NCBI GenBank assembly: GCA_964613395.1 | Contig: CAZTGO010000005.1 | Coordinates: 336 to 64,335, forward strand | Direction of reading: 5' to 3' | Source of the DNA: an uncultured Candidatus Poseidoniales archaeon | Lineage (GTDB): Archaea; Thermoplasmatota; Poseidoniia; Poseidoniales; Poseidoniaceae | DNA: 64,000 nt | Shown: in pieces, positions 34,632 to 51,099 of the stretch | Position numbering within the stretch: position 1 is the first letter of the stretch | Layout of the letters: the number at the start of each line of letters is the position of its first letter | Made by a program: the position numbers and the translations under genes | The notes under the pieces: model-generated | The model's database searches: none | What the model saw: the letters and a program-made list of their open reading frames with translations, nothing else | What the model was told of the DNA's origin: nothing

Positions 34632-35078
34632 TCACCAATCATCGGGAATCTCTAGAGGCGAAAACAACTGACCAGGACTTTGAACATTCGACAACTGTGT
34701 GCGAATAACTTGTTCCCATTGACGTAGCATCAATAGAGCACGGTCAAGTTCAATGTTGATTTCAATGAGCGTAACACGAATGAGCGTATCGAGGATATCC
34801 ATTCGTTGAGCATCGGACCGTTCCAATAGTTTGTCTAGGGAAAATTGCTGAGCATTGTTCGTCGAAACCTCCCTAATTTCCCAAGGCTCTGTCAATTCGT
34901 TAGGTAGTTGTTGATTGGAAGTCAAAGCATACTCTTGAAGTGAAGAAAGCAATTGTTTAATGTGCTTTTGAAAAACAAGAGAAACCTCAAACAAAGGCAT
35001 TTTGAGTTGTTGAAGTAAGTTCACAACTCGCTCTTGAAAGACCACCATTCCATCAATAGTGGGCGTATCTTTGGTCAA
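34632..35078 (-). CDS. Hypothetical helical cytosolic protein
   Basis: 148-aa ORF with a TTG start at 35078; the alternative ATG at 35048 gives MVVFQER. It begins 12 nt downstream of the giant gene 35091..40451 on the same strand. No TM helix and no motif I recognise. Confidence 0.45.
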   Translation of the reverse strand: MTKDTPTIDGMVVFQERVVNLLQQLKMPLFEVSLVFQKHIKQLLSSLQEYALTSNQQLPNELTEPWEIREVSTNNAQQFSLDKLLERSDAQRMDILDTLIRVTLIEINIELDRALLMLRQWEQVIRTQLSNVQSPGQLFSPLEIPDDW

Positions 35079-35090
35079 AGGATGACCTCA

Positions 35091-38000
35091 CTACTTCTTC
35101 GAATTAATGTACTGCCAACCATATGCATTCCATTGCTCCATTGTCCAGCCCTCTGGAAGACCAGTTGGTGGAACAGGTGGTGCAGCAGGCATTGGCGCAG
35201 GTGCCGCAGGAGCGGCTTGTGGAGGAGGAATCGTTGGATTTGGTGGTGATTTGATTTCTGGGACAATTTTGTCACCATCATCCATTGACTCAACGACATC
35301 TGCTGTTTGGTCAGATTCATCTTCAAATGATTCCGCAATGAGCCTTCGACGCATGACCATCGACCATACACCAAAGGAAATTGATCCCAATGCAATGATG
35401 AAGAGTACGATGCTAAAGATCCCTTCTGACGCTTGTTGTGAAAGTGCTTCACCATCGCGTATCGTTTGTTCTTTAACAATGAGTGGGTCAACTGTCATCC
35501 TGTCCATCTCAACACCATCAACGAGTACGAGAACTCGATATTCGATGCTTTCACCTGCAACAACATCAGCTGTATCAGATAGCGTTGCGATGAATTCTTG
35601 ATTGGATGTCACGTCAAGGGTAATGACATCAGTTTCAGACCAAAAACCACCTTCAATCAGTCGTTGTAACGATAATTGAACTTGGCCCGTGCCTCCAACA
35701 TTGACTCCTTTGACAATCATACTTGACATCTGGCCTTGGGTAGGACTCGGGTTCGACCATTGCAGCGATGAACTTTCAGCCTGCAGGTCAACCATCGGAC
35801 CAATAAGTGCCAGTGGCCAAGATGCAAATGGTTCAATCATCGAATTACCATTGGTATCAAATGGATTACCTGCTTCATCTGAACCTGAAATCCAAACATC
35901 AACTGTATATGATTGGAGTAATGTCGTAGCACCTGCGTCCGTCAAATCAAGAGAACCTGTCCAAAAGAATTGGTCTCCGAATGGTGTAATCTCAGGTAGC
36001 AAAACGCTGCCTCTCGAAATTTCTGCCTCTCCTGCCTTCACTCTGTAGTGAAGCACTGCAGGTTTATCGAAATCGAAACCATTTTCATCTCTCGTCTCAA
36101 GTTGTACAAGCAAATCATCGGCATTCCCAATCGAGAGAGGCATATTGGGTTCAACACCGCCAAGAGAAATACCGGCTATTGTAGGTTGGTCACTATCGAC
36201 TGCTAGGCGCACTCTTGGAACAAATGGTGATTGATCTTCTGCTAAGCCTGGCAGGTCATCTAGCTTTAGTCGCAAATCAAGATGACCTGAACGTACAGAT
36301 GGAACAAGCAAATCAAGAGAAAATTCTCCATCTAACCTTGTCGAAGTTTCCCATAGGAATTCAAAGTCCCCGAATGTAACATCAAACGCACCGGCTGGAG
36401 CTGGGGTTTCATCCTCTGAGAATAAGACTCTACCTGTAACTCGTAGTGCCTGTCCTGCACCGATGATGGTCTCATAGTTTTCGTCATTGTAGTGATTCAC
36501 ACCATTTCGAAGTTCAACTGCCCGGATGTGACCGCTCTCGGTATCGAATCTGAAGTCATTATCTAAACTCCACCAATCTTCGCCTAAACCGTATTCAAGT
36601 TCGTGACACGGTGTAATTTCACCTACATTGCAAGGACGGTCGGTAATGAGTATTTTTGGAATGAAATGCGACTCTCCGTTTGTGTCAAAAATTTCAGGGA
36701 AGGTCCATGTTAATTGAAATCTTGCTTGAATCAAAATTTTGCTCTCATTTAATGGGTCAATTTCGACTGTTGAGTAAATGTTTGATACTGCAATGTTGGT
36801 TGAACCAGACGCCATCACCGCACGAGGTAGACCGTTGTCATCTTCTTCCATACTGATGAATATTGATGATTCGTCATCTTCGAAATCACCGCTGAGTGTG
36901 AGTTGAATGTATTGGATATCTTTCCAAGTATTCCGATCGCTAACAACGAGTTGTGCAGTGTAAAGAATACCTGGGTGAAGAGGCTGGTAATCATCGTGTC
37001 CGACAATTGTTGAATTGCCGATATCGACGCTGGGTTGGAATTCTTGACGAATCACATAAGTTACGAGATCTGCATCCCAGTCAGGAACTGTCTCTCCAGG
37101 CCTGTATCCACATGATACGCTACTTTGTGGACAAACTGGACCTCCACCCATTGCGACCTGATTGTTTTGACCATCTTTTCCAGAGACATAGAACGATACT
37201 TTTTGTCCGTGCAATAACATTGAATCATCGATCACCCCTTCAAAGATATTCAAGCCACCAACTTGAGTATCAGGTGAACCAATACTCATGAGTTCATATT
37301 CGTCTGCATTTGGCAACCCATCAAAATTGTAGTCAGTGCATCCGATTGCATCGCTTGCCCTACAGCCTATCCAATAGTGGAGTGAGATAGAATTTGGTGG
37401 ATCAACGGAATCTTGTATCGTGATTGATATAGGTTGTCCACCACCGGTCGCAGCGTGTTGTTCTGACCCATCAATTGGCGTCGCTTGAATGACAAGTGGA
37501 GAATTACCATCGAGAACAAGGCGAATGGAATTGTACGAAGGATTCGCAAACACCGAACCGTTCACCAGGTCAACAGCTTGTACGTAGAACACCATTCCTC
37601 CGGGGTGAGATTCTGTCGGTGAAGTGAATGTAAAGTTGTATTCACCGAAGGCAGGATTTACCTCTTCGAAGAGGACCATAGGCTCTCCAATCGGGTCACC
37701 ATCATACGTCACATTTTGACCAATGATACGGATTGAGAAAGACCCTGCTTCTGGCATAAGTTGAGAACTTTCAAAATGAATACCTCCAGTAAATGTCAAA
37801 TTATATCCGCCACGTACCCAGTCAAAAGAATACAACTCTCGCCCAGTTTCTTCAAAGACTCGCAACCCATCAAGTTGAATGTCATTTTCAATGACGAGAT
37901 CCATGTCTGAAGTTATCCATCCGTTTACTGCTACACCAAGACTATCTTCAACCGTAACAACTGCTTCAGCATCGGACTCATCATTCCAACTCCAGTTAAC

Positions 38001-40451
38001 TATCGTTGGTATACGAATCACCAATTCTCCTTTCGAATTGATGGAAGAAGAACAATTTGTGGTATCAAATTGAATAATACCTGCAGCATCTGATATTGTG
38101 CTGCACGAATCACCCAACTGCCACATAAATGACGGTGTTGGTCCATGAGAATTAAGAATTCCAATTGTTGCTTTGGTCACCCTGTCAACATCATCTCCAT
38201 GAGCCACCGTAGCGATTAAATTTCGATAGATTCCATCGGGTGCTGTTAGACCTCCTTCAAATTCGACGCCCACTGCACGGGTTTGCATCTTGTAGGAAAT
38301 ATCGATATTCGAAATCTTAACTCGACCTGATGTGGCAGCCTTGATCGCTATTGGAACATTGACGGTCCCCTCTCCATTTTCAGGTATGAAATCATTGAAT
38401 GCATCGATGAGGGATGGTGCATCTCGCACCACCGAGCCGACAGCTGATTCATCGGTTGCGACGATTGACGATTCATTGAGGAACAACAATGAACGCCAGT
38501 CCCATGTTCCATCGTTACCAATATCAATTTCTGGTCTATCCGGATATCCTTCTTCAAAATTCAATGTGAATTTGTCAATCTTTGGAGTTATTGTAGCATC
38601 ATTGGTGGTAAGGAAAATCGCATACTTGAGTGTGTTTCCAGCGTCCTCTGTTGAGAAACTTGTCTCTTGATTGTTCGGAGCCTCCTTCCAATTGGTGCCG
38701 TTATCATTTGAAACCATTACTGAAATTGAAGTGCCCACCGGTTCATCCGCAACCCATACAGGTCGAACTTTACCGACCTTTGTACCGGTATTGAAATGTG
38801 GACTTGTCCATTCTCCCGAAGGTTGATATTCAGTTGCATATTCAATGTTAACCCACCAGGAAACTGCAGTTGAACCAATAAGTTGTGCTTTCCAAACAAG
38901 TTCGTTACCCGGGTAAGCAAAGTGGATTGTTTCATTGCTCACAACAGGTTCCCAATGCGTCCCATTGTCTGCGGATATCCAATAATCGACACGGTCACCG
39001 ATAGATGATGCTGACCAGTACGCCTTCATGTTGGCTGAAAGAATCTCATCGCCGCTATTCACGACAGGACCATACCATGTGGTTGTTCCGGGAGCAGGTG
39101 TCGTTTTGTAGGTCCAGCCTGTCCCAAATTCTCTGTAGTATAACGTGGAGCCGGACCAGGTGGAATAACCTGAATCAACGGTGATGAATCGCTTTCCATC
39201 ATATTGCAGGCCGTAACCGAGAGGGGAAATTTGGCGAACGCCTTGTTGCGGTACAAGGGAAGATGATTGGCCTGAAATGGACCATGCTTCCAATTGATCT
39301 CTGTCGTTGTAGTACTGATCTTTTTGGCATCGCATAAAGAACGTCGATTCGTTTACTTCGAGACCACGAACAAGTTGGCCTGTTCTTCCACAATCCCAAC
39401 TAGAACCCGATGAGGAGGAGAATGTGTACATGCTGTCACCACGCTGATATTGACCTGTACCATCGCTGCTAAAGGTGTACGGAACGATGGATCGAGCGGA
39501 GTTGTGGACAATCCATACGACATCTCTTGAGTGGTCGTAAGCTATGGCAACATAGTCTTGCAATTGTGGTGAAACATCGTAGGAGTCTATGCATGTCCAC
39601 ACATCGTCTCTTGAAACATCCATCTCGACGACGCGATGGTACATGACTGGGGCTGTTGAACCATAGGGATATTTGTAGCCGGATAAGATGCCAAACAATC
39701 GTTCGTCATCGGTGAGCGTCCAATCTCTAAAACCATACATTCCATAATAACTGCTCGAATGCTTTTGTGGAAGAGTACACTGCGCTTTGTCAAGTGTGAT
39801 TGTTGATTCGATGGTTGCGTTGTTTGGATATAATCTCTTGACGACGTTATGGAATGAAGATGAGGACCATGTTGACAAAAATAACCAATCATGATGCTTG
39901 AGGATTGCTCCTTGTCCTTGAGCCATAAATGTCGTAGCTGTCTTACTAACTTGTTGGGAGAATCTTGATTCAGTTGCGTTTGATGTGTGAGGTTGCCTTA
40001 AGGAAAAGGAACCGTTGTCTAACCATGCATTTGAGTTTGGGTCTTCTATTGCATCGTTTCCGTGAGGATCAAACAATACCGTTGTATTACCCATTGCAAG
40101 TGTTAGGTCATCGCTTCTATCATCAACGAGTGTATCGAGTCCTTTCACCCAATCTTTTCGTTCATCCGTTACCAATTGCGACCATCCTGTTGCTGATGCT
40201 CCCGACAATGTCAAACTGACATCTGTAACCAGAGCACCCTTTGGAATTTGGATTTCAGCTCCTGTATCAGGGTTCCCTCCCTGATAGAGTGCAATATACT
40301 CCGACGAGCCATCCTTGAAATCGTAGATGTGTCGGGCAACGCCAGCAGCTTGTGCATCATCAACAACATTCGTGAAAACAGGCGACCATGGTGTAAACAT
40401 CATAATGAATATGATGAAAATTGCCGCTCGGCTCGACCGAATTGAATTCAT
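35091..40451 (-). CDS. Giant (1786 aa) surface protein with Asp-box-containing beta modules, C-terminal TM helix and Pro-rich cytoplasmic tail
   Basis: Signal peptide AAIFIIFIMMFTPWSPVFTNVVDDAQA. Two Asp-box (S-x-D-x-G-x-T-W) motifs: SADNGTHW at nt 38952..38975 and SNDNGTNW at nt 38688..38711. TM helix IFSIVLFIIALGSISFGVWSMV. 86-aa tail (nt 35094..35351). Confidence 0.85.
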   Translation of the reverse strand: MNSIRSSRAAIFIIFIMMFTPWSPVFTNVVDDAQAAGVARHIYDFKDGSSEYIALYQGGNPDTGAEIQIPKGALVTDVSLTLSGASATGWSQLVTDERKDWVKGLDTLVDDRSDDLTLAMGNTTVLFDPHGNDAIEDPNSNAWLDNGSFSLRQPHTSNATESRFSQQVSKTATTFMAQGQGAILKHHDWLFLSTWSSSSFHNVVKRLYPNNATIESTITLDKAQCTLPQKHSSSYYGMYGFRDWTLTDDERLFGILSGYKYPYGSTAPVMYHRVVEMDVSRDDVWTCIDSYDVSPQLQDYVAIAYDHSRDVVWIVHNSARSIVPYTFSSDGTGQYQRGDSMYTFSSSSGSSWDCGRTGQLVRGLEVNESTFFMRCQKDQYYNDRDQLEAWSISGQSSSLVPQQGVRQISPLGYGLQYDGKRFITVDSGYSTWSGSTLYYREFGTGWTYKTTPAPGTTTWYGPVVNSGDEILSANMKAYWSASSIGDRVDYWISADNGTHWEPVVSNETIHFAYPGNELVWKAQLIGSTAVSWWVNIEYATEYQPSGEWTSPHFNTGTKVGKVRPVWVADEPVGTSISVMVSNDNGTNWKEAPNNQETSFSTEDAGNTLKYAIFLTTNDATITPKIDKFTLNFEEGYPDRPEIDIGNDGTWDWRSLLFLNESSIVATDESAVGSVVRDAPSLIDAFNDFIPENGEGTVNVPIAIKAATSGRVKISNIDISYKMQTRAVGVEFEGGLTAPDGIYRNLIATVAHGDDVDRVTKATIGILNSHGPTPSFMWQLGDSCSTISDAAGIIQFDTTNCSSSINSKGELVIRIPTIVNWSWNDESDAEAVVTVEDSLGVAVNGWITSDMDLVIENDIQLDGLRVFEETGRELYSFDWVRGGYNLTFTGGIHFESSQLMPEAGSFSIRIIGQNVTYDGDPIGEPMVLFEEVNPAFGEYNFTFTSPTESHPGGMVFYVQAVDLVNGSVFANPSYNSIRLVLDGNSPLVIQATPIDGSEQHAATGGGQPISITIQDSVDPPNSISLHYWIGCRASDAIGCTDYNFDGLPNADEYELMSIGSPDTQVGGLNIFEGVIDDSMLLHGQKVSFYVSGKDGQNNQVAMGGGPVCPQSSVSCGYRPGETVPDWDADLVTYVIRQEFQPSVDIGNSTIVGHDDYQPLHPGILYTAQLVVSDRNTWKDIQYIQLTLSGDFEDDESSIFISMEEDDNGLPRAVMASGSTNIAVSNIYSTVEIDPLNESKILIQARFQLTWTFPEIFDTNGESHFIPKILITDRPCNVGEITPCHELEYGLGEDWWSLDNDFRFDTESGHIRAVELRNGVNHYNDENYETIIGAGQALRVTGRVLFSEDETPAPAGAFDVTFGDFEFLWETSTRLDGEFSLDLLVPSVRSGHLDLRLKLDDLPGLAEDQSPFVPRVRLAVDSDQPTIAGISLGGVEPNMPLSIGNADDLLVQLETRDENGFDFDKPAVLHYRVKAGEAEISRGSVLLPEITPFGDQFFWTGSLDLTDAGATTLLQSYTVDVWISGSDEAGNPFDTNGNSMIEPFASWPLALIGPMVDLQAESSSLQWSNPSPTQGQMSSMIVKGVNVGGTGQVQLSLQRLIEGGFWSETDVITLDVTSNQEFIATLSDTADVVAGESIEYRVLVLVDGVEMDRMTVDPLIVKEQTIRDGEALSQQASEGIFSIVLFIIALGSISFGVWSMVMRRRLIAESFEDESDQTADVVESMDDGDKIVPEIKSPPNPTIPPPQAAPAAPAPMPAAPPVPPTGLPEGWTMEQWNAYGWQYINSKK
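35094..35159 (-). other. C-terminal tail peptide LPEGWTMEQWNAYGWQYINSKK (copy 2 of the shared motif)
   Basis: Hand translation gives GGT CTT CCA GAG GGC TGG ACA ATG GAG CAA TGG AAT GCA TAT GGT TGG CAG TAC ATT AAT TCG AAG AAG. The first 33 nt match the copy at 4482..4547 at 29 of 33 positions. Confidence 0.8.
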
Positions 40452-40529: not shown

Positions 40530-43500
40530 TCAAGTTTCTCGCGAGTCATACCGAATTGGTGAGGATTGGCCACGTACACCATCTTCTTCATCGTCACGTA
40601 CTTCAAACCAATCAACGAGCCAATCGCCATCCGTGTCCCAGTTCATTGGACTGCTACCCTCAGCGAGATGGTCATCATCGAAATCTAGCAGGTACCATCC
40701 AAATTCGTGTTCGCCAACATTTCGATCGGGAGCTGTATGTGGTGAAAATTCATAATAAATCTCCCATGCATCTGTCTTATTCCCTGCAAGAATTATTTCG
40801 TCATCAGAAGCATTGAGTTCAAAGAAACTCACATCATTATCGTTGACGATATACCCGTATTGGTAATCTTGTCCAGCAAATTTATCCATTTTGAGATAGT
40901 TCAAAACAAGTTCATTAGACTGACCGATACCAAGCACTGCTTTCCTCAATTGCCACCACTCCGTAACTAAATTCCCATCAACAGTTAAACCAGATAATCT
41001 CACTGCATTTGGTGACGAGTATTCTTGAAGTGTAAAGGCGTAAAATTCTTGGAAATTTGTATATGGCTCGTATGTACAACCAACTCCGGTGCAGTCCCAG
41101 TTTCCGTCTTGGTCTGGGTCTTGATTCGCATCATTTGGGTCCGCTGGGTCGAGGGTGAACCACGTGTATTCCAAATCAGGTCGTTGAAGTTGCCCAGTAT
41201 CTGAATTGAGCGACAACGGTAAGCAAGATGATGTGGATGTAGTACAGGGACCTCCAGTTCCCGGGTCAATCCATTGAACTTGAATTTTTAAGAAAGAACT
41301 GAAATTATCGTTGGATTCATTCCATCCTAACTTGTATTCATACCAATCTGGCAACATATCTCCATCAGAATCATTATCGCTTGGATTGCTTCCATACTTG
41401 AACACTTCACGACCATCAGAATAATTGTAATCTTGAACATGCGAAAGAACAACGCCATTTTCCACAGTCGTGATGAATGTAACGCTATCACCATCGGAAT
41501 CATTGAGGTCAGGCCTCGTGTTGTTCATCCATTCCATCTGATTGGTGAAAGGTAGATCACCAATACCGGGTTGAATTTGTTGCGAAGAAGGCGTAAACAC
41601 ACGATTGTCCCAAACACCTTGAGTTGCCGGTTGGTCAAAGGTCGTTCGCCCATACCACCCATCATGGTCACCATCATAATTTATGTCAAATGGATTGAGT
41701 GGATTTGAAGACCAGTGGTTGATTGTCGTTGTGTCGTTCATTCCAAAGATTGCGTAACAATATTCCCAACCATCAGGAATACCATCACTGTCTGAATCCG
41801 GGTGTGTTGGGTCAGCGACTCCTCTTAATGACCGATTGAAATTTCCAGAATCGAGTGAATTGATTTTTTCCATTCGATCAAGCGAATCCGGGCCTTTCGC
41901 AATAAAGTCTTGATACAAAGCAAGTTGTGATTGCAAAATCGAGTAACCCAATTCTTCTTGATAAGCGAGCATGGCATCTTCCCCGAAATCGATGATGCCA
42001 AGTTCAAGTGGCACCGTCGCCCTCATGTCGAATTTACCCCACGTTCTCGACTCCCATTCACGTAAATTGGAAAACAGTTCATCTTGTGAGATGTCTCCAT
42101 CTCCATTGCAATCATAACTATCATCGTCTGAGTCAAGGTACACATCTCCATCGATGAGAGGATTCATACTCCATCTATTTTCATCCAAATCCCATGATGT
42201 AAACCAATATTCAAATCCGTCGTACATTCCGTCGCCATCTGTATCGCTTGACGTTGGGTCAGTCATCCCTTGTAGAACAGAAATGAATGCATTCGGAGGC
42301 TCGCCGGATTGCCAAGCATTGAAATCATCAAGGAGGCGTTTTCCACGTGTGTTCTTTGAGATGAGCATGTTGAAAATTCGTTGTGCTTTTTCGGTCGGCT
42401 GTTGAAGATCGCCATCAATATGGAGGAGAGGTGCATCACTCGGATGTTCGATTCCGTTATCGGGCTGCATTGTTGCGAGGGCAAACTCTTGTTTATCGAT
42501 AAGGCCGTCTTCGTCACCATCGAAATTTCCATCGTCTGGCACGAGTGGATTGAGCGTCCACACTTCAGCGGAAGAGTTCCACGCCGTGAAGAGCAACTCC
42601 AATCCGTCGAGCATCCCATCACCATCTGTATCGATGTTGTTTGGGTCTGTCGTCATACCAGATATATTTCGAACTCCTTCATCGATGAAACTACCGAATG
42701 AGGATGATGTTGGAATGCCCGGCCATTGTTGTAATGCGTAGGCTGTGCCAACAGTTGTCACGAACCATTGTGGAGAACTCCTGTTGCTCTGGATCTCAGA
42801 GAAGATTGGATCAATCGAATTGTACTCCTCCCAATTCGTCATACCATCATCATCTGCATCTTCCCAGCGGTCTTTCGAATCGAGGGGATTTAATGTCCAG
42901 CCATCATCGAGTAGATTCCATCGGGCAAACCAAATCTCCCATCCGTCTGGCATACCATCTGTATCCGAGTCAGAATCCCAAGGATTTGCAGCACCGATAC
43001 TGTATGTGGTTTGGCTGTTGTATAGTTCACTAAATGCCCTGTCAGAAAACGTGTCTTCTGGTTCGCCGTAGTCGTAGATGTGGTCGAACAAATTTGTTTC
43101 AAATGCCATGGGGAATTCTTCGCCGTCAAACGTACCATTGCTCACAAACAAGTCACTTCGGAGATGATATTCGAGGTAGTTGACAAATTGCTCGTTCAAT
43201 GTCAATACGCCATCATGGTTGATGTCGTATCCATCACCATCAGGGTTGCCGAGAACATCGGTTGAATTGAGTGGATTGACACCATTGTATTCGGGCGACC
43301 ATGTACAACGTCCGTTTGATTCCCAGCCATCAGGGAGCGAATCTCCGTCTGAATCGATAGAATTTGGATCTGCAACACTCCAATTTGCTACAGCTTCAGG
43401 AACTTCTCCGAAATTTTCAATCAACTCACCCTCCAAGCCTGCAAGCCTCACGAGTGACCATTGATACTCACAAAGGTTGGCAAGCCCATCGCTATCTGCA

Positions 43501-46271
43501 TCCCAATCAGCGTCTTCTGGACGGTGAGGGTCAAGGGTCCAATTATTTCCGCCAGTGAACGTTGTTCCGATCCAACGACGATGTTCAATCTCCCAACCAT
43601 CTGGCATTCCATCCCCATCCGAATCTACATTGGTTGGGTCGGTTCCAAAATCGATGTTCATCTGATTGAGGTATGTCGCGTTGGCTTGCTGACCAACTTG
43701 ACTGTCGCATTGATACACCATTTGAATGGTGTAATAGCACCAAAGCGTGCTTTCCTTGTAGTAAAAGCCGTAGTATTCTGCACCGTCTGACAAACCATCG
43801 CCATCCGTGTCGCCTTCTTGTGGATTCGTTGAATTAAATCCACCTAATGTTCGTTCAACATACCTGTATTCGTCGAGATTGACCCACAATCGTTCTAGAA
43901 CACCATCACCAGATGCATCGAGGTCAATGCCATCGCCGTCAAAATCAAATTGAGCATCCCAAGGATCGGTTGGGTCAAGACCATGCTCATATTCCCAACC
44001 ATCTGGCATACCATCCGCGTCCGAATCATTTGAGAGTGGATTGATGAGCTTTAGATTTGAGAATTGACCTGGTGCTGCTGCAGCAAAGACTGTTGAAACC
44101 CCATCTTGATTCACTGAAATCACCGAAGAGATTTCACCTGGAATTCGGGTTTGGTCTTGCAGCCCATACACTGCAGCATAATCACCAGCAATGGCCCATA
44201 CTCCCCATTCAGAACCAACTAGTATTTCATCACCAGTTGGATATATCGAATGAATGCTATTCGTTTCACGTATTGTCTTTCCTTCAACTCCTGGATGAGC
44301 AAAGAGGCCACTGTGCGTGATTTGTCCTGAATTTGTGTCCATTCGATGAACACCCCCAGGTGTACCAAACCACAAAACCTGGCTATTTGATGCAGAAGGG
44401 CCATCAAAAACAACCGTTCGAATTTCTGCAGGATTCCCTTGTGAACCGATGACCATAGGGCGAACAGCATCGACTTGTGGGCCAAAATTTGATTGCTCGG
44501 GGTCGTAGTACGCCACCCATTCCCCTACAGCTTCATCACGACCAGTCGCTGTTTCAAATATGACCAAACCAACATTCGTTCCAACAGCAAGCAATGATTC
44601 ACCGTTGGAATTTATGCCATGGGCAACTGCGTTGACACTTGCGTTACGTTCGAACAGTGAAGTTACAATCCCGGAGCCAAGTTCATGTGTTGATTCGATG
44701 TCAAAGGCCGAAGATAATTCAACGATGAGCCCCGTTCCCTTTGGACCAAGACCGAGTACTGTTGGCAATCCATCTTGAAATGTCAACATTGTGATTGCGT
44801 TGATTTCGCTTGTTGGTATATGAGTCCATAAATCAAGTGAAGCAAACGAACCATCGGCTAGGAGTGGTACGATGGTCATGCCCTTCGTGGTCGCTAAAGC
44901 GATTGCAAAAATTTCTCCATCCCCAGAGACATACACTGCATCATTAGCTTTCATGCCTTGTGGAAACCATTGGTGATTGGATTGGTTTGTTTCAAGATTA
45001 ACCGAGGTCAAGCCATAAGTTGTAACCACATGAAGCGTTTGTTCAAATGAAAGTAATGAGTTAATATCGTGGTGTATCGATTCGATTCCACCTTGTTGCT
45101 CAAGCATCAATGGATGTCTCACAACCGTTGAATCATTGAGAAGTAACGATGACTTGAGGCCTGGGTAAATCGTATTGCCGTCATCGAAATGAATGTTATA
45201 TTCTTGAATATTTGAAAGGGCTTCGCCAACCTCTAATGCCGTAAGTGTTCTCGATAAATCCTCAGTGATAACACCATCACGGTTGCGATCCCAACCATCG
45301 TTATCTGCATCGACGAGAGAATTGGTTTTATTTAATGGGTCGAGACCAAAATGTACTTCCCAACCATCGGTCATACCATCCCCGAAAGAAGGGAACAGTG
45401 GTCGGATTCTACCCACCCATTCATATCGGTCAGAGTCATCAAGAAGAGGGTCTGTACCCAACCACATATCGTCACCAATCATTCCTGTCGTATTCGTTGT
45501 ACAGGCTTGAAGAATGTTGATGAATGAAGCATTTGAATTCGTTCCGATGTATGGCCAAGAATTTCTGACTGCTCCGTCGGGCAGGCTTGCTTTGCACCAC
45601 AAACCATCGAGTTCGGTAACAAATGATGAATTTGCTCCGTAAATGTATTCTTCTGAAGATGTAAACCGTTCGGGTATAGATAAATCGCCATCGCGATTGA
45701 TGTCAAAACCATCTTGGTCAGGATCGTCGGTCAAATCACTTGCGTTGAGGGGGTCAAAACGCAAACAATTGTATCGCATTTGGATGACATTGTATCCGCC
45801 AATTCGATCGCACATGTATGCCTCAAACCCATCAGGAAGCCCATCACCATCTGTATCTGCAGTTCTCGGGTCAAGGTACATTCTATTCCCGAGTTCATCT
45901 GTTTTTCCAGTCAAACCTCGAGGGAACCCCGGAGCCGTACAATTCGCAGGATATGGCCAACAAAATTCCTCAGTGCTGTTTAATCCATCATGATCAAAGT
46001 CCAATGCTGCATCAGTCGCATCGTTTTTGTCCAAACCTTTGATTGAAATCTCTCTTCCATCAACATTCGTCCAGTTCATCCACTCTTCAAAGAGAGATTC
46101 GTGAACATCGGGAATGAGGTCACCATCGGAGTCCGTGTTTTTTGGTGGCTCTTGTGTCGTGTCATCAGGATGCACGTTTGCCACTGGCGAAACAGCAGGA
46201 AATTGCGACATGAACAACAGGCTGGAGATGACTGCAAGTGTCGTCAAAATCGTTGTCTGACTTCGCCTCAT
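40530..46271 (-). CDS. Giant (1913 aa) secreted protein with about 25 thrombospondin type 3-like calcium-binding repeats and a central propeller-like region; no TM anchor
   Basis: Signal peptide ILTTLAVISSLLFMSQFPAVSPVA. Recurrent D-x-D-x-D-G-x-x-D-x-x-E units include DTDGDGLPDGFE, DSDADGMPDGWEYE, DSDGDGMPDGWEIE, DSDTDGMPDGWEIW, DSDSDGIPDGWEYC and DTDGDWLVDWFE. Residues about 390-760 are G/S/T/V-rich without such repeats. The acidic C-terminus ...RDDEEDGVRGQSSPIRYDSRET has no hydrophobic helix. Confidence 0.9.
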   Translation of the reverse strand: MRRSQTTILTTLAVISSLLFMSQFPAVSPVANVHPDDTTQEPPKNTDSDGDLIPDVHESLFEEWMNWTNVDGREISIKGLDKNDATDAALDFDHDGLNSTEEFCWPYPANCTAPGFPRGLTGKTDELGNRMYLDPRTADTDGDGLPDGFEAYMCDRIGGYNVIQMRYNCLRFDPLNASDLTDDPDQDGFDINRDGDLSIPERFTSSEEYIYGANSSFVTELDGLWCKASLPDGAVRNSWPYIGTNSNASFINILQACTTNTTGMIGDDMWLGTDPLLDDSDRYEWVGRIRPLFPSFGDGMTDGWEVHFGLDPLNKTNSLVDADNDGWDRNRDGVITEDLSRTLTALEVGEALSNIQEYNIHFDDGNTIYPGLKSSLLLNDSTVVRHPLMLEQQGGIESIHHDINSLLSFEQTLHVVTTYGLTSVNLETNQSNHQWFPQGMKANDAVYVSGDGEIFAIALATTKGMTIVPLLADGSFASLDLWTHIPTSEINAITMLTFQDGLPTVLGLGPKGTGLIVELSSAFDIESTHELGSGIVTSLFERNASVNAVAHGINSNGESLLAVGTNVGLVIFETATGRDEAVGEWVAYYDPEQSNFGPQVDAVRPMVIGSQGNPAEIRTVVFDGPSASNSQVLWFGTPGGVHRMDTNSGQITHSGLFAHPGVEGKTIRETNSIHSIYPTGDEILVGSEWGVWAIAGDYAAVYGLQDQTRIPGEISSVISVNQDGVSTVFAAAAPGQFSNLKLINPLSNDSDADGMPDGWEYEHGLDPTDPWDAQFDFDGDGIDLDASGDGVLERLWVNLDEYRYVERTLGGFNSTNPQEGDTDGDGLSDGAEYYGFYYKESTLWCYYTIQMVYQCDSQVGQQANATYLNQMNIDFGTDPTNVDSDGDGMPDGWEIEHRRWIGTTFTGGNNWTLDPHRPEDADWDADSDGLANLCEYQWSLVRLAGLEGELIENFGEVPEAVANWSVADPNSIDSDGDSLPDGWESNGRCTWSPEYNGVNPLNSTDVLGNPDGDGYDINHDGVLTLNEQFVNYLEYHLRSDLFVSNGTFDGEEFPMAFETNLFDHIYDYGEPEDTFSDRAFSELYNSQTTYSIGAANPWDSDSDTDGMPDGWEIWFARWNLLDDGWTLNPLDSKDRWEDADDDGMTNWEEYNSIDPIFSEIQSNRSSPQWFVTTVGTAYALQQWPGIPTSSSFGSFIDEGVRNISGMTTDPNNIDTDGDGMLDGLELLFTAWNSSAEVWTLNPLVPDDGNFDGDEDGLIDKQEFALATMQPDNGIEHPSDAPLLHIDGDLQQPTEKAQRIFNMLISKNTRGKRLLDDFNAWQSGEPPNAFISVLQGMTDPTSSDTDGDGMYDGFEYWFTSWDLDENRWSMNPLIDGDVYLDSDDDSYDCNGDGDISQDELFSNLREWESRTWGKFDMRATVPLELGIIDFGEDAMLAYQEELGYSILQSQLALYQDFIAKGPDSLDRMEKINSLDSGNFNRSLRGVADPTHPDSDSDGIPDGWEYCYAIFGMNDTTTINHWSSNPLNPFDINYDGDHDGWYGRTTFDQPATQGVWDNRVFTPSSQQIQPGIGDLPFTNQMEWMNNTRPDLNDSDGDSVTFITTVENGVVLSHVQDYNYSDGREVFKYGSNPSDNDSDGDMLPDWYEYKLGWNESNDNFSSFLKIQVQWIDPGTGGPCTTSTSSCLPLSLNSDTGQLQRPDLEYTWFTLDPADPNDANQDPDQDGNWDCTGVGCTYEPYTNFQEFYAFTLQEYSSPNAVRLSGLTVDGNLVTEWWQLRKAVLGIGQSNELVLNYLKMDKFAGQDYQYGYIVNDNDVSFFELNASDDEIILAGNKTDAWEIYYEFSPHTAPDRNVGEHEFGWYLLDFDDDHLAEGSSPMNWDTDGDWLVDWFEVRDDEEDGVRGQSSPIRYDSRET
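40601..46133 (-). repeat. Dispersed intragenic repeats encoding TSP3-like Ca-binding loops
   Basis: On the + strand, 43992..44027 (ttcccaaccatctggcataccatccgcgtccgaatc), 43590..43625 (ctcccaaccatctggcattccatccccatccgaatc) and 42936..42971 (ctcccatccgtctggcataccatctgtatccgagtc) are near-copies. Many more diverged copies occur through the gene. Confidence 0.8.
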
Positions 46272-46451
46272 AGTCTCACCTGCGACATGGTGCTAACTGC
46301 CGCTGTCTAAAACTCCACGCGTTTACCTTATGAGGGTGATGGAACATTGTTCCGACAGAACATCATTAAAATCATCATCGACATTTCCAAAAACTTGCGA
46401 AATAGCACAATTTGGAGGGTCAATAGCGGTGTATTCAAAGTCCGTACGCGA

Positions 46452-47294: not shown

Positions 47295-47318
47295 ATCCAA
47301 CGAAGGACTGGCGTGAGT

Positions 47319-48380
47319 ATGGAAGCCAAGAGAGGTGAAACATTCTCGGCTTCTTCATCCAGGGATGAGCGTGGTGTTAGCGAAGTTCTGGGCGTTGTGA
47401 TGCTTTTAGCAATGGTCATCACCATCATGGGAGGGGTTTGGATTTTCCTCAACCCATACATGAGTGATTTTGAAGACAACACAAATTGGAAATCTGCCAC
47501 TGGTATTACAGAACGAATTGATGATCGAATCAGCGTTGCTGGAAATTCACCAAATGGAACTGGTTTCAAAAACTCGATGTCGCTGGTTTCCACATCCATA
47601 CAAACTATGAAGGGTATAGAATATTGGACTGTGGCTGCTGATTTGACCACTCGAGATGTCATCAAAATCAAACACATGAATGATTCGGCAATTGAAGTGA
47701 CATCGATAAATGAGCGAATTGTAACCATTGAAATTCAAAATCATCTCGAAACCTTAGCCCTCGATGTCGATGACGGTGAAAGCCGATATATTATCAGCCA
47801 CAATCTTTCTCGTCAGAAATGGTTCATGGTCACAGCGTATGATGCAGAGGGCACATCACTCCATAGGCATGTTGATGTCATTCTCTCGGGATTAAAAGTC
47901 ACAACCAGTCTCGGGATGGGTGACCACCAGATCGCTCTCATCAACAACGCCGTCATCGAGAAATTTCCAAATGACCCCTGGACCATTGCTTCTATGCCCA
48001 CCTTGTCGTTCACTCACCTCGCTAATGGTGATGTGAGGTTAGCTATCCTTCTCACTGATGCTCATTCTATTCGTTCATTCGGCGGTGCCGGTAAAACGAG
48101 CATCGAATTTCTCTCTCTCGGACCAATGAACTTATTTTCAGGACCTGCATACAACATCCACTTCTCTGCACACAGTGAACTACATCCAGTCGTTAGTCCA
48201 CAGTATCATGAAACTTGGTTGCAAGACTATTATCTCCATCGCTCATCTGCAACATTGACGACATATGATGGTATAGCTCCCTTTGAACGAGCGAGTGGTG
48301 CTGATGGTTTCACTGTCATGACCACAAGCCCTGTTGTGCATTTCGAAGTTGACCTTCAACGAGTCGAGGTGAACACATGA
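47319..48380 (+). CDS. Pilin-like surface protein with an archaeal class III (type IV pilin) signal peptide, 353 aa
   Basis: The N-terminus ...SSSRDERGVSEVLGVVMLLAMVITIMGGVWIFL (nt 47370..47450) matches the archaeal type IV pilin N-terminal pattern D-x-R-G-V-S-x-V-i-G followed by a hydrophobic helix. ATG 47319; the stop overlaps the next start (ATGA). Confidence 0.7.
   Translation: MEAKRGETFSASSSRDERGVSEVLGVVMLLAMVITIMGGVWIFLNPYMSDFEDNTNWKSATGITERIDDRISVAGNSPNGTGFKNSMSLVSTSIQTMKGIEYWTVAADLTTRDVIKIKHMNDSAIEVTSINERIVTIEIQNHLETLALDVDDGESRYIISHNLSRQKWFMVTAYDAEGTSLHRHVDVILSGLKVTTSLGMGDHQIALINNAVIEKFPNDPWTIASMPTLSFTHLANGDVRLAILLTDAHSIRSFGGAGKTSIEFLSLGPMNLFSGPAYNIHFSAHSELHPVVSPQYHETWLQDYYLHRSSATLTTYDGIAPFERASGADGFTVMTTSPVVHFEVDLQRVEVNT
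48366..48371 (+). promoter_or_regulatory. Shine-Dalgarno-like GAGGTG inside the 3' end of gene 1, upstream of ATG 48377
   Basis: The sequence reads tcGAGGTGaacacATGa with a 5-nt spacer. The start and stop overlap in ATGA, implying translational coupling. Confidence 0.5.
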
Positions 48381-50626
48381 AGACATCCAGCACACTTTGC
48401 AGGGACGAAGATTCTGTTTCAGCAGCTGTAGCAACCGTTCTCCTTTTTGGTGGCGTTCTTTCGATCATCGGCATGATGATGGTATCGATGGTCCCAGTCA
48501 TTGAGGAACTTGAAGGATCTGTCGAACGGCACGACATGTCGGCACAAATGGCACTTCTTGCTCACAAAACCTCATTGCTCAGCGAGACTGGAATGCCAGG
48601 GGATTCCACATCAGCAGAATTGATCCCCGTCGATGGCAATCTCGTTTGGGACCGACTTCGTGGTGGCATGTGGTACTCAGCTACTTGGGGAGAGGACATG
48701 AGTTTACGTGCAAAAAATGTTGTTGACTTTGATGACGAATTCGAAATTCGTCACCCAGAAACCGAAACTGCAGTGGTGTGCACAACGGATTTACGGCTTG
48801 GCATCAATCGCCCTTATTACTATGACATACCCGATTACACAGAGAAACTTCTCATCACAGCAAAACCGGGCCTCGCCTTACCCCTAGGCCCCATTGATAT
48901 CTCGATGTTCGGCGATGATGGTTACGAATATTCCAGTGAACTCCTTGTTGACGAGGTGTTCTCATCTAGTTTCATTTTTCCAGTCGGTAACCTCACAATA
49001 AAATCCACGCATGAACTCAACATATTGGCTCTTGCTGGCGACGAAGGTGCAACCTATATTCCTCCAAATCAGCCCGATGCTGCAAATAAACTCGGGCGTT
49101 CTTGGTCAATCCCGCTACCATCTGGACTCTCGACCGTCTATGTGACGAGCAAAGATGCAAATGAAGTCTCTTTGATTTTAGGTGATGAATCTGCAACATA
49201 CTTCGGAATTCCCGATGAAATTGCAAGAACAGGAACAGGAGTAGAATTACAGTTCAATCAATCGTCTGAAGCGGTTGCTCATATTTTTACCAGTTCAAAT
49301 TCTCAAATTATTTACAGGTATGGTGAATCATCTGGTGAAGGCCTCACATATATTCCCTCAACGACCGGCTCTTACTACGGACAAGAGTTCATCCCTCCCT
49401 ACACAAATAGTACTCTTCGATTATCGAACCCAGGTGAAACAGCATTGACCGTAACTTGGCGTGGAGGAGGAATTACGGTGGCTGCAAATGATGTTGAAGA
49501 TGTTTCATGGCCACCATCAACAACATACACAACCCCACTTGTTCTTGAATCGGACTCGCCATTCTCTGTGCTGTGGTCATCATTTGATCAAAATCAACCC
49601 GTCGACCTTCGAGATGGCATGGTTCATCTCATTGCAAAGGACACTGGATTTTGGACTGGCCATCACTTCAATTACACTTCAAGTCAAGACATAGGCCAAG
49701 AAATCGAAGCATCACTCCGTGGCTATCGCACTGAGATTCTTTGGGAGCAAGGAGGATTGAATGGAACGAATATTTTCATTCAAGACGGTACAACTTCGAA
49801 ATTGTATTCCTTGGCTTCAGAATCATTGAATATTGAAGTGAACAACACACACCCAATCTCGCTCCTACGAGCGGCAGGTGATAGCGGAGCACTCTACATA
49901 CCGCATTCAGGCACCGAGCGTTGTGAATCGGTGGGTACATTAGCGAGTGGCTGGATACCATTGCAACTTGCTTGGCAATCCATGGGTGGCCGCAGCGATT
50001 CAGATGTAGAAAATGCATGGATCGATGGGCGACATCCCTCAAGCGTTCAAATCGATGTGTTTGGTACGATTGATCAAGATTTCAACGCAAACATAGGAAC
50101 CATTTGGGCCTTCCATCTCTCACGCCTATCGTATCAATTCAAAACCTCCGTTGAAGGCATGGAGGTAGCTTACTCTGGAGGTGCAGTCATGACCAATCAC
50201 CCAGAGTTCAATCCATATATCGTGGTTCCACCTTCTGACCGAGGAGGCCCAGGGCCACGATTTGCAGCAACTATTCCCGCATTACATCCATCTTCTGATA
50301 GTGTCATTGGAGGAGGTAAACTTTCGATTGATATTGAGCTAAATTTGCGAACATCTCTCGCATCGACAGATGCCTATGAAATTAGGAGGGGTTGGAACGA
50401 ACCATACGGAGCAGCAATCGCCGAACATGCTGGTGAGGGGCTCGGAGGAAGTGAAGACTGGACAGTGTACCCTGGAAGGCTCGACCTCCTCACCGACTAT
50501 GTTGGTTGGGTCCCAGATCCAAGTTTCGGAACGAGTGAAACCGTATGGCACACCAATGGAGAGGTCATCAAATTCAGCCTTCAACTCAGCGCTCTTGAAG
50601 TCACACTAAGGGAGGCTAACCGATGA
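48377..50626 (+). CDS. Large (749 aa) pilin-like surface protein with class III-type N-terminus
   Basis: N-terminus MKTSSTLCRDEDSVSAAVATVLLFGGVLSIIGMMMVSMVPVI (nt 48401..48502). The rest is beta-rich and hydrophilic with many N-x-S/T sequons. Both junctions are ATGA overlaps. Confidence 0.65.
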   Translation: MKTSSTLCRDEDSVSAAVATVLLFGGVLSIIGMMMVSMVPVIEELEGSVERHDMSAQMALLAHKTSLLSETGMPGDSTSAELIPVDGNLVWDRLRGGMWYSATWGEDMSLRAKNVVDFDDEFEIRHPETETAVVCTTDLRLGINRPYYYDIPDYTEKLLITAKPGLALPLGPIDISMFGDDGYEYSSELLVDEVFSSSFIFPVGNLTIKSTHELNILALAGDEGATYIPPNQPDAANKLGRSWSIPLPSGLSTVYVTSKDANEVSLILGDESATYFGIPDEIARTGTGVELQFNQSSEAVAHIFTSSNSQIIYRYGESSGEGLTYIPSTTGSYYGQEFIPPYTNSTLRLSNPGETALTVTWRGGGITVAANDVEDVSWPPSTTYTTPLVLESDSPFSVLWSSFDQNQPVDLRDGMVHLIAKDTGFWTGHHFNYTSSQDIGQEIEASLRGYRTEILWEQGGLNGTNIFIQDGTTSKLYSLASESLNIEVNNTHPISLLRAAGDSGALYIPHSGTERCESVGTLASGWIPLQLAWQSMGGRSDSDVENAWIDGRHPSSVQIDVFGTIDQDFNANIGTIWAFHLSRLSYQFKTSVEGMEVAYSGGAVMTNHPEFNPYIVVPPSDRGGPGPRFAATIPALHPSSDSVIGGGKLSIDIELNLRTSLASTDAYEIRRGWNEPYGAAIAEHAGEGLGGSEDWTVYPGRLDLLTDYVGWVPDPSFGTSETVWHTNGEVIKFSLQLSALEVTLREANR
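50611..50615 (+). promoter_or_regulatory. Shine-Dalgarno GGAGG upstream of ATG 50623
   Basis: The sequence reads aagGGAGGctaaccgATGa with a 7-nt spacer and an ATGA start/stop overlap with the preceding gene. Confidence 0.5.
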
Positions 50627-51099
50627 CCTTAGATTCAAAATTCACACGTGATGAATCAGGTGCTGCTACTGAACTCGGGTATATCTTCACATTTCTTCTC
50701 GGTGTGCTCCTCATGACAATGTTCAGCATTTGGGCATGGGGAATCGAAACATCCACTCGAGAGCGTTGGAATGATGAAGCAATTATTGCCAACATGGACG
50801 ATATCGTTGAAGCTGTTGAGCGTGCAAATGAAGCAAGTCGAATTGATAATTCAACATATGCCGAATGGGTCTCATGGAGACCAACGGAAGCTGACGAATC
50901 ATTGATGACACTCAAGTTGGAAACAAATACGATTGAACTCGTTGATGAGTCAGAAAGGGAAGGATACACTGTTCAACATTCGGGAACCGGGAATGCAGAG
51001 AACAATGGTACACTCGCCCTGGCAGGTATCACAACAATTTGGGTTGTGCTTGAAGATGGTCAAATCTACCTTTCAGCGGACAGACCGTATTTTTCTTAG
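50623..51099 (+). CDS. Small (158 aa) pilin-like protein with class III-type N-terminus
   Basis: N-terminus MTLDSKFTRDESGAATELGYIFTFLLGVLLMTMFSIWAWGI (nt 50647..50745). Of the three genes, this size is closest to a structural pilin. Confidence 0.6.
   Translation: MTLDSKFTRDESGAATELGYIFTFLLGVLLMTMFSIWAWGIETSTRERWNDEAIIANMDDIVEAVERANEASRIDNSTYAEWVSWRPTEADESLMTLKLETNTIELVDESEREGYTVQHSGTGNAENNGTLALAGITTIWVVLEDGQIYLSADRPYFS

Follow-up and report, generated by a model that had tools for sequence, protein, structure and literature searches.

The 64,000-nt stretch of DNA analyzed here (the window) comes from an uncultured Candidatus Poseidoniales archaeon (GenBank assembly GCA_964613395.1, contig CAZTGO010000005.1, positions 336 to 64,335) and carries on its minus strand a gene of 1913 codons plus stop (40530..46271), which is the subject of this work. 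Poseidoniales, or Marine Group II, are uncultured and among the most abundant archaea of the surface ocean; to our knowledge, their cell surface has never been described. A check of the open reading frame (ORF) and its translation bore out the 1913-residue protein read at this position by an initial annotation that had used the DNA letters alone, and a Shine-Dalgarno-like GGTGAG lies 4 nt 5' of the ATG (46272-46285, minus strand). The product has a computed mass of 212.7 kDa, a pI of 4.05 and a net charge of -247, a charge per residue in the 3.5th percentile among the ORFs of the genome. From its N-terminus onward, it consists of a hydrophobic helix, a Pro-rich linker, three calcium-loop modules, a beta-propeller, ten further modules and a short charged tail. 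On the evidence presented below, it looks like a conserved core cell-surface protein rather than a repeat-variable adhesin.

The most prominent feature of the protein is its set of Asp-rich loops. The strict motif D-x-D-x-D-G-x-x-D-x-x-E occurs nine times, whereas in 2000 shuffles of the 1913-residue sequence it came up 0.00 times on average and at most once. The looser D-x-D-x-D-x-x-x-D-x-x-E is present 13 times (shuffle mean 0.02), and the core DxDxDG 18 times (shuffle mean 0.28). When the query is aligned with 115 full-length orthologues, reaching down to 42% identity, 29 separate loops keep D or N at positions 1, 3 and 5 in 98–100% of the 116 sequences, and 15 of the 29 also keep D9 and E12; the figure of about 25 loops given in the initial annotation was a fair count. 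Residues 338–749 are free of loops. Loops of this kind serve generally as building elements of the surface proteome in this organism, for 21 ORFs in the whole genome contain at least eight DxDxDG motifs. Long proteins are also common in it, with 107 ORFs of at least 900 residues making up about 24% of the 1.88-Mb genome.

The loops are of two kinds, which are combined in a larger unit. The A loops, of which there are 13, end in D-[GVW]-x-E, mostly as PDGWE. One exact string had been described as recurring very often along the protein; this did not hold, since DSDGDGMPDGWE occurs once, close variants of it ending in PDGWE account for five loops (at 749, 883, 973, 1101 and 1492), and it is the more general ending that is found 13 times. 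In the structural model, a short helix comes after the A loop, and then, in order, a hairpin flanked by Trp, a W-[TS]-[LM]-N-P-L turn, the B loop and a further helix. The B loop is of the EF-hand type, D-x-[DN]-x-DG-x-[ILV]-x-x-x-E, with a helix next to it, as in DINRDGDLSIPE, DINHDGVLTLNE and DCNGDGDISQDE; it is doubled in four modules (183/190, 321/328, 1009/1016 and 1380/1387) and single elsewhere. A two-loop module of 50–100 residues, made of a thrombospondin type 3 (TSP3)-type loop, a hairpin and an EF-hand-like loop, is the repeat unit, in 12–13 copies. We compared 13 segments by hhalign, using profiles derived from the orthologue alignment, and modules M1 to M12 proved to be mutually homologous, with probabilities mostly of 94–100%, E values down to 5e-23 and 40–100 aligned columns; the modules with doubled B loops cluster with each other. 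A contiguous tandem array of ~22-residue TSP3 units is not present, as judged from the spacing of the A-type loops (62–145 residues), from the unit defined by hhalign and from a tandem-repeat search of the DNA. The earlier picture of some 25 single-loop units was therefore right about the loops and wrong about equal repeats.

Three modules precede the loop-free core and ten follow it. The N-terminal group, M1–M3 (residues 45–370; 45162..46139, minus strand), was delimited by loop conservation and hhalign; it contains loops at 47, 91, 139, 183/190, 298 and 321/328 together with three conserved Cys pairs, and is modeled with a predicted local distance difference test score (pLDDT) of about 90. 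The C-terminal group, M4–M13 (residues 742–1896; 40584..44048, minus strand), was delimited by loop conservation, hhalign and AlphaFold2, and has A-type loops at 749, 821, 883, 973, 1101, 1214, 1343, 1492, 1634 and 1879 and B-type loops at 776, 924, 1009/1016, 1138, 1251, 1380/1387, 1533 and 1718, with helical inserts at about 1283–1335 and 1402–1482. AlphaFold2 models of residues 1–760 and 741–1913 were each built from a 93-row alignment. The second has a mean pLDDT of 87.8 and a predicted template modeling score (pTM) of 0.67, and shows the C-terminal 1173 residues as mainly loops with short helices and hairpins. The confidence of both models points to a single compact body and not to beads on a string. 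A Foldseek search of residues 741–1913 against the PDB returned no match to a solved structure (best E 2.9), a method that is weak on coil-rich folds, and this is not proof of a new fold. Matches of the C-terminal model to the calcium domain of anthrax protective antigen (E about 3–9) were set aside, as they merely echo the loop motif. At the level of sequence, neither phmmer with the full protein nor hmmsearch with a family profile matched any PDB chain at E up to 1.

Profile searches relate parts of the protein to known calcium-binding types. When the protein was searched as six pieces, the Pfam family TSP3_bac (PF18884) scored 25.4 bits on residues 1–377 and 30.5 bits, in three matched stretches, on residues 741–990, against a gathering score of 25; the remaining pieces gave 8.8 bits or no match. 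EF-hand profiles, which matched other pieces, stayed below their gathering scores (EF-hand_6, 19.6 against 25 bits; EF-hand_1, 15.2 against 25.4), and the NCBIfam model of CglD (NF033765) matched in part, over the calcium-loop region only, with 39.6 bits against a cut-off of 400 and an E of 1.5e-10. Taken together, the motif statistics and the profile scores support the assignment of the loops as TSP3/EF-hand-type calcium-binding motifs, and the scores on the two pieces agree with the loop type that the initial annotation had proposed.

The composition of the protein is what one would expect of a molecule that works outside the cell. There are 31 N-x-S/T sequons where 17.6 ± 3.7 are expected, ten of them kept in at least 80% of the aligned orthologues, and the 16 Cys residues form eight neighboring pairs that are co-conserved with matching frequencies. 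Because the acidity, the sequon excess and the conserved Cys pairs all fit it, we infer that the protein is extracellular, glycosylated and disulfide-bonded, in keeping with the secreted protein first envisaged.

The loop-free core is predicted to be a seven-bladed beta-propeller (residues 371–741; 44049..45161, minus strand), as indicated by AlphaFold2, Foldseek and conservation. The model of residues 1–760 (mean pLDDT 88.2, pTM 0.80) arranges residues 371–732 as 27 strands, which make up seven blades of four strands each at a pLDDT above 90, and so gives a confident answer to the initial suggestion, marked with a query, that a core lacking the loops might be propeller-like. Foldseek aligns it with seven-bladed WD40 domains (E 7e-11, target-normalized template modeling score 0.55–0.67) and with the periplasmic Bacteroides sensors BT4663 (4a2l) and BT4673 (3ott, 3va6) at E 1.5e-9 to 2.8e-9 and 14–15% identity. 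A phmmer search of 1.84 billion representative sequences gave 55 matches, nearly all of them orthologues or their fragments. The only relatives from outside, four proteins of 821–1203 residues among the weakest matches (E 3e-4 to 9e-4), carry Reg_prop and Y_Y_Y domains, in most cases together with kinase or GGDEF domains. The propeller is also the least conserved and fastest-evolving region of the protein, with a mean identity to the query of 26–48% across the order and of 23–34% between groups within the Thalassarchaeaceae. Since it is the only fast-evolving part, it is a probable binding surface, whose target could be a glycan or polymer, or else a particle or another cell.

Both termini are conserved, and they bear on how the protein might be held at the cell. 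Residues 1–23 (46203..46271, minus strand) consist of MRRSQ, a 16-residue hydrophobic helix and SQ, with the helix modeled by AlphaFold2 at residues 2–22. This segment (MRR[SK]QT, hydrophobic stretch, SQ) is conserved from residue 1 across the order, its identity to 35 MGIIb orthologues being 53% against 43% for the full protein, and matches in other genomes begin at residue 1 nearly everywhere, compared with residue 2 to 31 for the signal peptide of the neighboring giant. A Pro-rich linker, FPAVSPVANVHPDDTTQEPPKNT (residues 24–44; 46140..46202, minus strand; pLDDT below 50 at 24–35 and 40–43), leads from the helix to the first module. Signal-peptidase sites follow the -3/-1 rule. The alignments show no conserved AxA-type or other signal-peptidase site after the helix, because the conserved S/A-P-V that follows it puts Pro at +1 or -3 of each small-residue site. 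The helix could be cleaved off as a signal peptide or stay in place as a signal anchor, the latter being a live alternative because the helix is conserved and such a site is missing. At the other end, residues 1897–1913 (40533..40583, minus strand) form an acidic/basic tail ending ...DGVRGQSSPIRYDSRET, whose 17 residues (...DGVRGxSSPIRYDSRxT) are 75–78% identical across the order, at the 92nd percentile among 17-residue windows of the protein. A Kyte-Doolittle scan with a 19-residue window exceeds 1.45 only at the N-terminus and in one propeller strand near residue 454, and finds no C-terminal transmembrane segment; the first Cys, residue 104, excludes a lipobox, and no known sorting tag was recognized in the protein. 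Genome-wide, nothing other than spurious short ORFs shares the N-terminal MRRxQT or the C-terminal SPIRYD. The initial view of a protein with no membrane anchor thus survives for the C-terminus and is uncertain for the N-terminus, where the helix could serve as one.

These features also frame the idea that, once its signal peptide has been removed, the protein is shed into seawater or onto particles and there, in soluble form, binds polymers or particles in a Ca2+-dependent way. A 16-residue hydrophobic stretch and the lack of a C-terminal membrane segment, lipobox or sorting tag would suit such an exoprotein, but the loss of a 213-kDa protein would be costly for planktonic cells with genomes of 1.3–2 Mb, the gene is kept even in the most streamlined genera, and the conservation of the N-terminal helix and the C-terminal tail suggests specific contacts. 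We therefore consider release into the medium quite improbable.

The gene is a nearly invariant possession of the order. By six-frame search, 150 of 151 Poseidoniales genomes contain the gene as one full-length copy without internal stops, and it is present in all 58 high-quality genomes and in all 22 genera, including the most streamlined ones (1.3-Mb genomes). Orthologues from 95% down to 42% identity are about 1890–1930 residues long and align nearly without gaps. All 13 complete members listed in the query's 90%-identity cluster have exactly 1913 residues, and those of a neighboring cluster have 1914 or 1894, a 20-residue gap that probably reflects an alternative start call. Outside the order, among 300 genomes of the phylum, there are just short matches to one module (query residues about 742–836). 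In a sister order of the same class these lie in ORFs of about 974–999 residues that hold ~10 tandem module copies at about 50% identity; an example locus, G344:C43:13810-16185, shows a plain tandem-array form of the two-loop building block. Because the outside matches cover one module only, the building block is widespread and the 1913-residue architecture is specific to the order. No copy was found in viral contigs, where the search patterns used detect close relatives only.

This constancy decides against a contingency adhesin whose length would change by intragenic recombination, a possibility raised in the initial annotation from repeats in the DNA. The repeats themselves are where they were said to be: the three best near-copies of a loop-coding segment (42923-42971, 43577-43625 and 43979-44027, together spanning 42923..44027, strand not assigned) are 69–84% identical over 49 nt, and the existence of such dispersed copies speaks for the idea. 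Over the whole gene, however, the copies are only 38–49 nt long and 60–84% identical, and a tandem-repeat search finds no tandem array. Each loop keeps its position through the 115 nearly gap-free orthologues, and neither the 1913-residue members of the cluster nor the assemblies of the order show length variation. As far as assemblies can show, fixed length and short, diverged repeats refute a repeat-variable adhesin, and we give that explanation almost no credence.

Downstream of the gene on the same strand are two further genes with which it forms a conserved unit. The first, which begins 78 nt after its stop, encodes a 1786-residue protein with a C-terminal transmembrane helix and a cytoplasmic GWTMEQW tail (35091..40451, minus strand). 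GGGGCGGTG lies just 5' of its ATG, preceded by TTTAAT, which could be a TATA-like element. This partner is optional: an orthologue is found in 94 of the 151 genomes and is absent from 57. By family, it occurs in 70 of the 75 Poseidoniaceae genomes and in 22 of the 74 from Thalassarchaeaceae, and the two genomes of a second family both have it. Wherever it is present it lies directly downstream on the same strand, in all pairs compared from the Poseidoniaceae, the second family and six Thalassarchaeaceae genera. Weak partial matches or none are seen in seven Thalassarchaeaceae genera (1.2–1.7 Mb genomes) and in a subclade of a Poseidoniaceae genus. The loss of the gene with its neighbors in place looks like streamlining that removes a 5.4-kb surface gene.

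We asked how the 1913-residue protein fares where this partner is missing by comparing 15 Thalassarchaeaceae orthologues from genomes with the 1786-residue protein and 20 from genomes lacking it. Identity among the partner-less orthologues is 0.698, against 0.640 among those that have the partner, and no 40-residue window shows relaxed constraint in the partner-less lineages, the largest normalized difference being 0.19 (about 2.6 standard deviations). As it is no less conserved where the partner is absent, the 1913-residue protein does not, by these comparisons, depend on its neighbor, and the giant, missing from 57 of the 151 genomes in which its supposed client is equally conserved, cannot be a general tether. 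An obligatory two-protein complex, in which an anchorless protein is held by the membrane-anchored one, had been the retention mechanism first suggested, and co-conservation of the two genes had been named as a check on it. Invariable adjacency on the same strand, where the downstream gene exists, speaks for the complex; the restriction to 94 genomes does not agree with it, and in the partner-less genomes the third gene of the unit directly follows. We regard such a complex as a doubtful explanation, and as a general rule it is refuted.

The third and last gene of the unit encodes 148 residues (34632..35078, minus strand) and begins 12 nt after the stop of the 1786-residue gene. Detected in 145 of 151 genomes, and undetected in five of the six genomes of one genus (g19), it is always the next gene downstream of the 1913-residue gene, or of the 1786-residue gene where that exists, and follows the former by 61–120 nt in all 34 partner-less genomes checked. 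Its product is predicted to be a cytoplasmic orphan: it has no signal peptide, no annotation and no Pfam or PDB match. We found 422 relatives, of which the best 120 are about 146–171 residues long (one is partial); the named ones among these 120 are all "hypothetical", mostly from Poseidoniales or unclassified marine archaea. With the product of the ORF that comes next after the MGIIb orthologue, the protein shares 39% identity, and its conserved C-terminus reads SPGxLFSPLE[IL]P.

The surroundings of the unit are conserved between families as well. In the MGIIb locus examined, which has no 1786-residue gene and otherwise keeps the synteny, the gene order is STT3 giant, subtilase, beta-helix giant, STAND NTPase, MBL-fold hydrolase, the 1913-residue orthologue, a Pcp-NUDIX fusion and DnaJ, and the block from the STT3 giant to the MBL hydrolase is syntenic between two families. 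In our window, an ORF at 59426-64000 (minus strand) runs off the end; the giant to which it belongs exceeds 3100 residues, and the MGIIb counterpart of this giant (L001:1-803) has an STT3 (oligosaccharyltransferase) domain. Three pilin-like genes at 47313-51099 (plus strand), between the MBL hydrolase and the STAND NTPase, are absent from the MGIIb locus (L001:6476-9822).

That the gene's syntenic block contains a giant of the STT3/AglB type and a subtilase is one of several observations that would suit a surface layer (S-layer). By analogy with SlaA/SlaB, the protein would be the main canopy or lattice subunit, with Ca2+ bridging the acidic subunits and the 1786-residue partner acting as the stalk. 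The gene is universal in the order, where it occurs as a single copy of constant length; its product is very acidic, rich in sequons and predicted to be disulfide-bonded; and in 94 of 151 genomes a gene for an unanchored giant is followed within about 80–230 nt by one for a C-terminally anchored giant. No S-layer protein of Poseidoniales is described in the literature we searched, which likewise holds nothing specific on a Poseidoniales S-layer or, for this gene, on metaproteome, microscopy or transcription data. However, the protein has no sequence or fold likeness outside the propeller to solved structures, S-layer proteins included, and Pfam and NCBIfam scans of it match no S-layer family. 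The would-be stalk is missing from 57 genomes in which constraint on the protein is unchanged, an identity of 42–47% between families is above the usual conservation of S-layer proteins, and the many other long ORFs of the genome (107 of at least 900 residues) supply other candidates. We consider an S-layer-like scaffold unlikely, if worth keeping in mind.

The reading we prefer, to which we assign a probability of roughly one half, is that of a core surface protein in which Ca2+ ties the modules into a rigid, acidic body presenting a variable, Reg_prop-like binding propeller. The protein would be exported through its N-terminal hydrophobic segment, N-glycosylated and then locked by about eight disulfides. 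Seawater contains about 10 mM Ca2+, and the roughly 29 Asp-rich loops may bind it on the outside of the cell. Bound Ca2+ would tie the 12–13 homologous two-loop modules, each a TSP3-type loop ending D-G-W-E, a short helix with a Trp hairpin, and an EF-hand-like loop with its helix, into a single highly acidic body, which would carry the seven-bladed propeller as its binding element. What keeps the protein on the cell would probably be either the conserved N-terminal helix, serving as a signal anchor that is not cleaved, or non-covalent contacts made by the conserved C-terminal tail.

Several points weigh against this reading. It is the loop motif that suggests Ca2+ binding, and over the full length of the protein TSP3_bac reaches 20.4 bits, short of its gathering score of 25. 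On residues 378–760 no Pfam family matches at E up to 10, Reg_prop (PF07494) included, and the suggested link of the propeller to Reg_prop comes from fold likeness in the model and from sequence matches at E of about 3e-4. At 16 residues, the hydrophobic stretch is short if it is to serve as a transmembrane anchor. Finally, the fixed order-wide architecture would fit a structural lattice as well as a binding role.

There is also a more ambitious version, in which the protein would be the principal envelope scaffold of Marine Group II. The two-loop modules, which have no solved counterpart, would then form a Ca2+-bridged, glycosylated coat tethered by the protein's own N-terminal helix, with the order-specific 148-residue protein helping in its synthesis or positioning and the 1786-residue protein serving as an accessory stalk lost in streamlined lineages. 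We think this rather unlikely; if true, it would amount to a new type of surface layer in archaea, and if the protein is a generic adhesin only, the result is an ordinary one. Its fixed length in essentially every genome, even those of 1.3 Mb, makes it in either case a strong candidate for a core component of the envelope or of attachment. The analysis yields a testable domain map, a confidently predicted calcium-loop architecture of 1170 residues without a solved counterpart, and a conserved three-gene unit.

Among known systems, the SlaA/SlaB pair of the Sulfolobales is the nearest in gene order. There, the gene of a large unanchored glycoprotein is followed by that of a C-terminally membrane-anchored protein, an order that the 1913- and 1786-residue genes share. 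The likeness comes from the genes alone: the proteins have no resemblance in sequence or fold, and here the partner equals the first protein in size and can be dispensed with, as it is in 57 of 151 genomes. For the propeller, the nearest comparison is with the Reg_prop/Y_Y_Y sensors of Bacteroides hybrid two-component systems, which are extracytoplasmic and seven-bladed, as our propeller is predicted to be, and share with it hydrophobic-x-G-T-x-x-G-L blade motifs. In contrast to these sensors, the 1913-residue protein has just one propeller and lacks both a Y_Y_Y domain and a kinase.

The calcium loops recall several families. Thrombospondins are extracellular, glycosylated and disulfide-bonded, and their type 3 repeats form the "calcium wire" of the signature domain; the type 3 repeats of thrombospondin/COMP follow the same 12-residue Asp-rich loop logic as the protein described here. 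The initial annotation had called the loops TSP3-like and set them beside those of thrombospondin/COMP, yet the Pfam TSP_3 profile matches neither the whole protein nor its pieces at E up to 10, TSP3_bac being the profile that reaches its cut-off, and on two pieces only. No thrombospondin/COMP chain appears among PDB sequences by phmmer or family-profile hmmsearch at E up to 1, Foldseek, for which coil-rich folds are hard, does not match residues 741–1913 to the signature domain, and no C-terminal lectin-like domain is recognized in our protein. All of these tests place it outside the eukaryotic thrombospondin/COMP family. Genes labeled "thrombospondin" have been reported as widespread in Poseidoniales and as putative adhesion genes (Rinke et al. 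2018, PMC6461757), so far the only pointer to adhesion in the literature. The B loops with the helix that follows them resemble EF-hand and dockerin sites, but EF-hand profiles score 12–20 bits against cut-offs of 25–30, no dockerin profile matches, and no cohesin-like partner was identified.

The closest relationship suggested by the loops is with the TSP3 proteins of prokaryotes (PF18884; CglD, NF033765; MtsD, NF047639), which are found at the cell surface, as is predicted for our protein, and like it carry many DxDxDG(xxDxxE) loops. CglD of Myxococcus xanthus, a lipoprotein of the cell surface, carries twelve DxDxDG motifs, and a role in Ca2+-dependent adhesion has experimental support (bioRxiv 10.1101/2023.10.19.562135). 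Unlike CglD, the 1913-residue protein has no VWA (by Pfam), EGF-like or lipobox elements, and unlike tandem TSP3 arrays, it sets its loops in 12–13 larger two-loop modules with structured inserts. Judged by its loop sequences, it appears to be related to prokaryotic surface proteins with TSP3 repeats, CglD among them, from which it differs in being archaeal and in having a central propeller, an architecture fixed across a whole order and a small orphan gene linked to its own.

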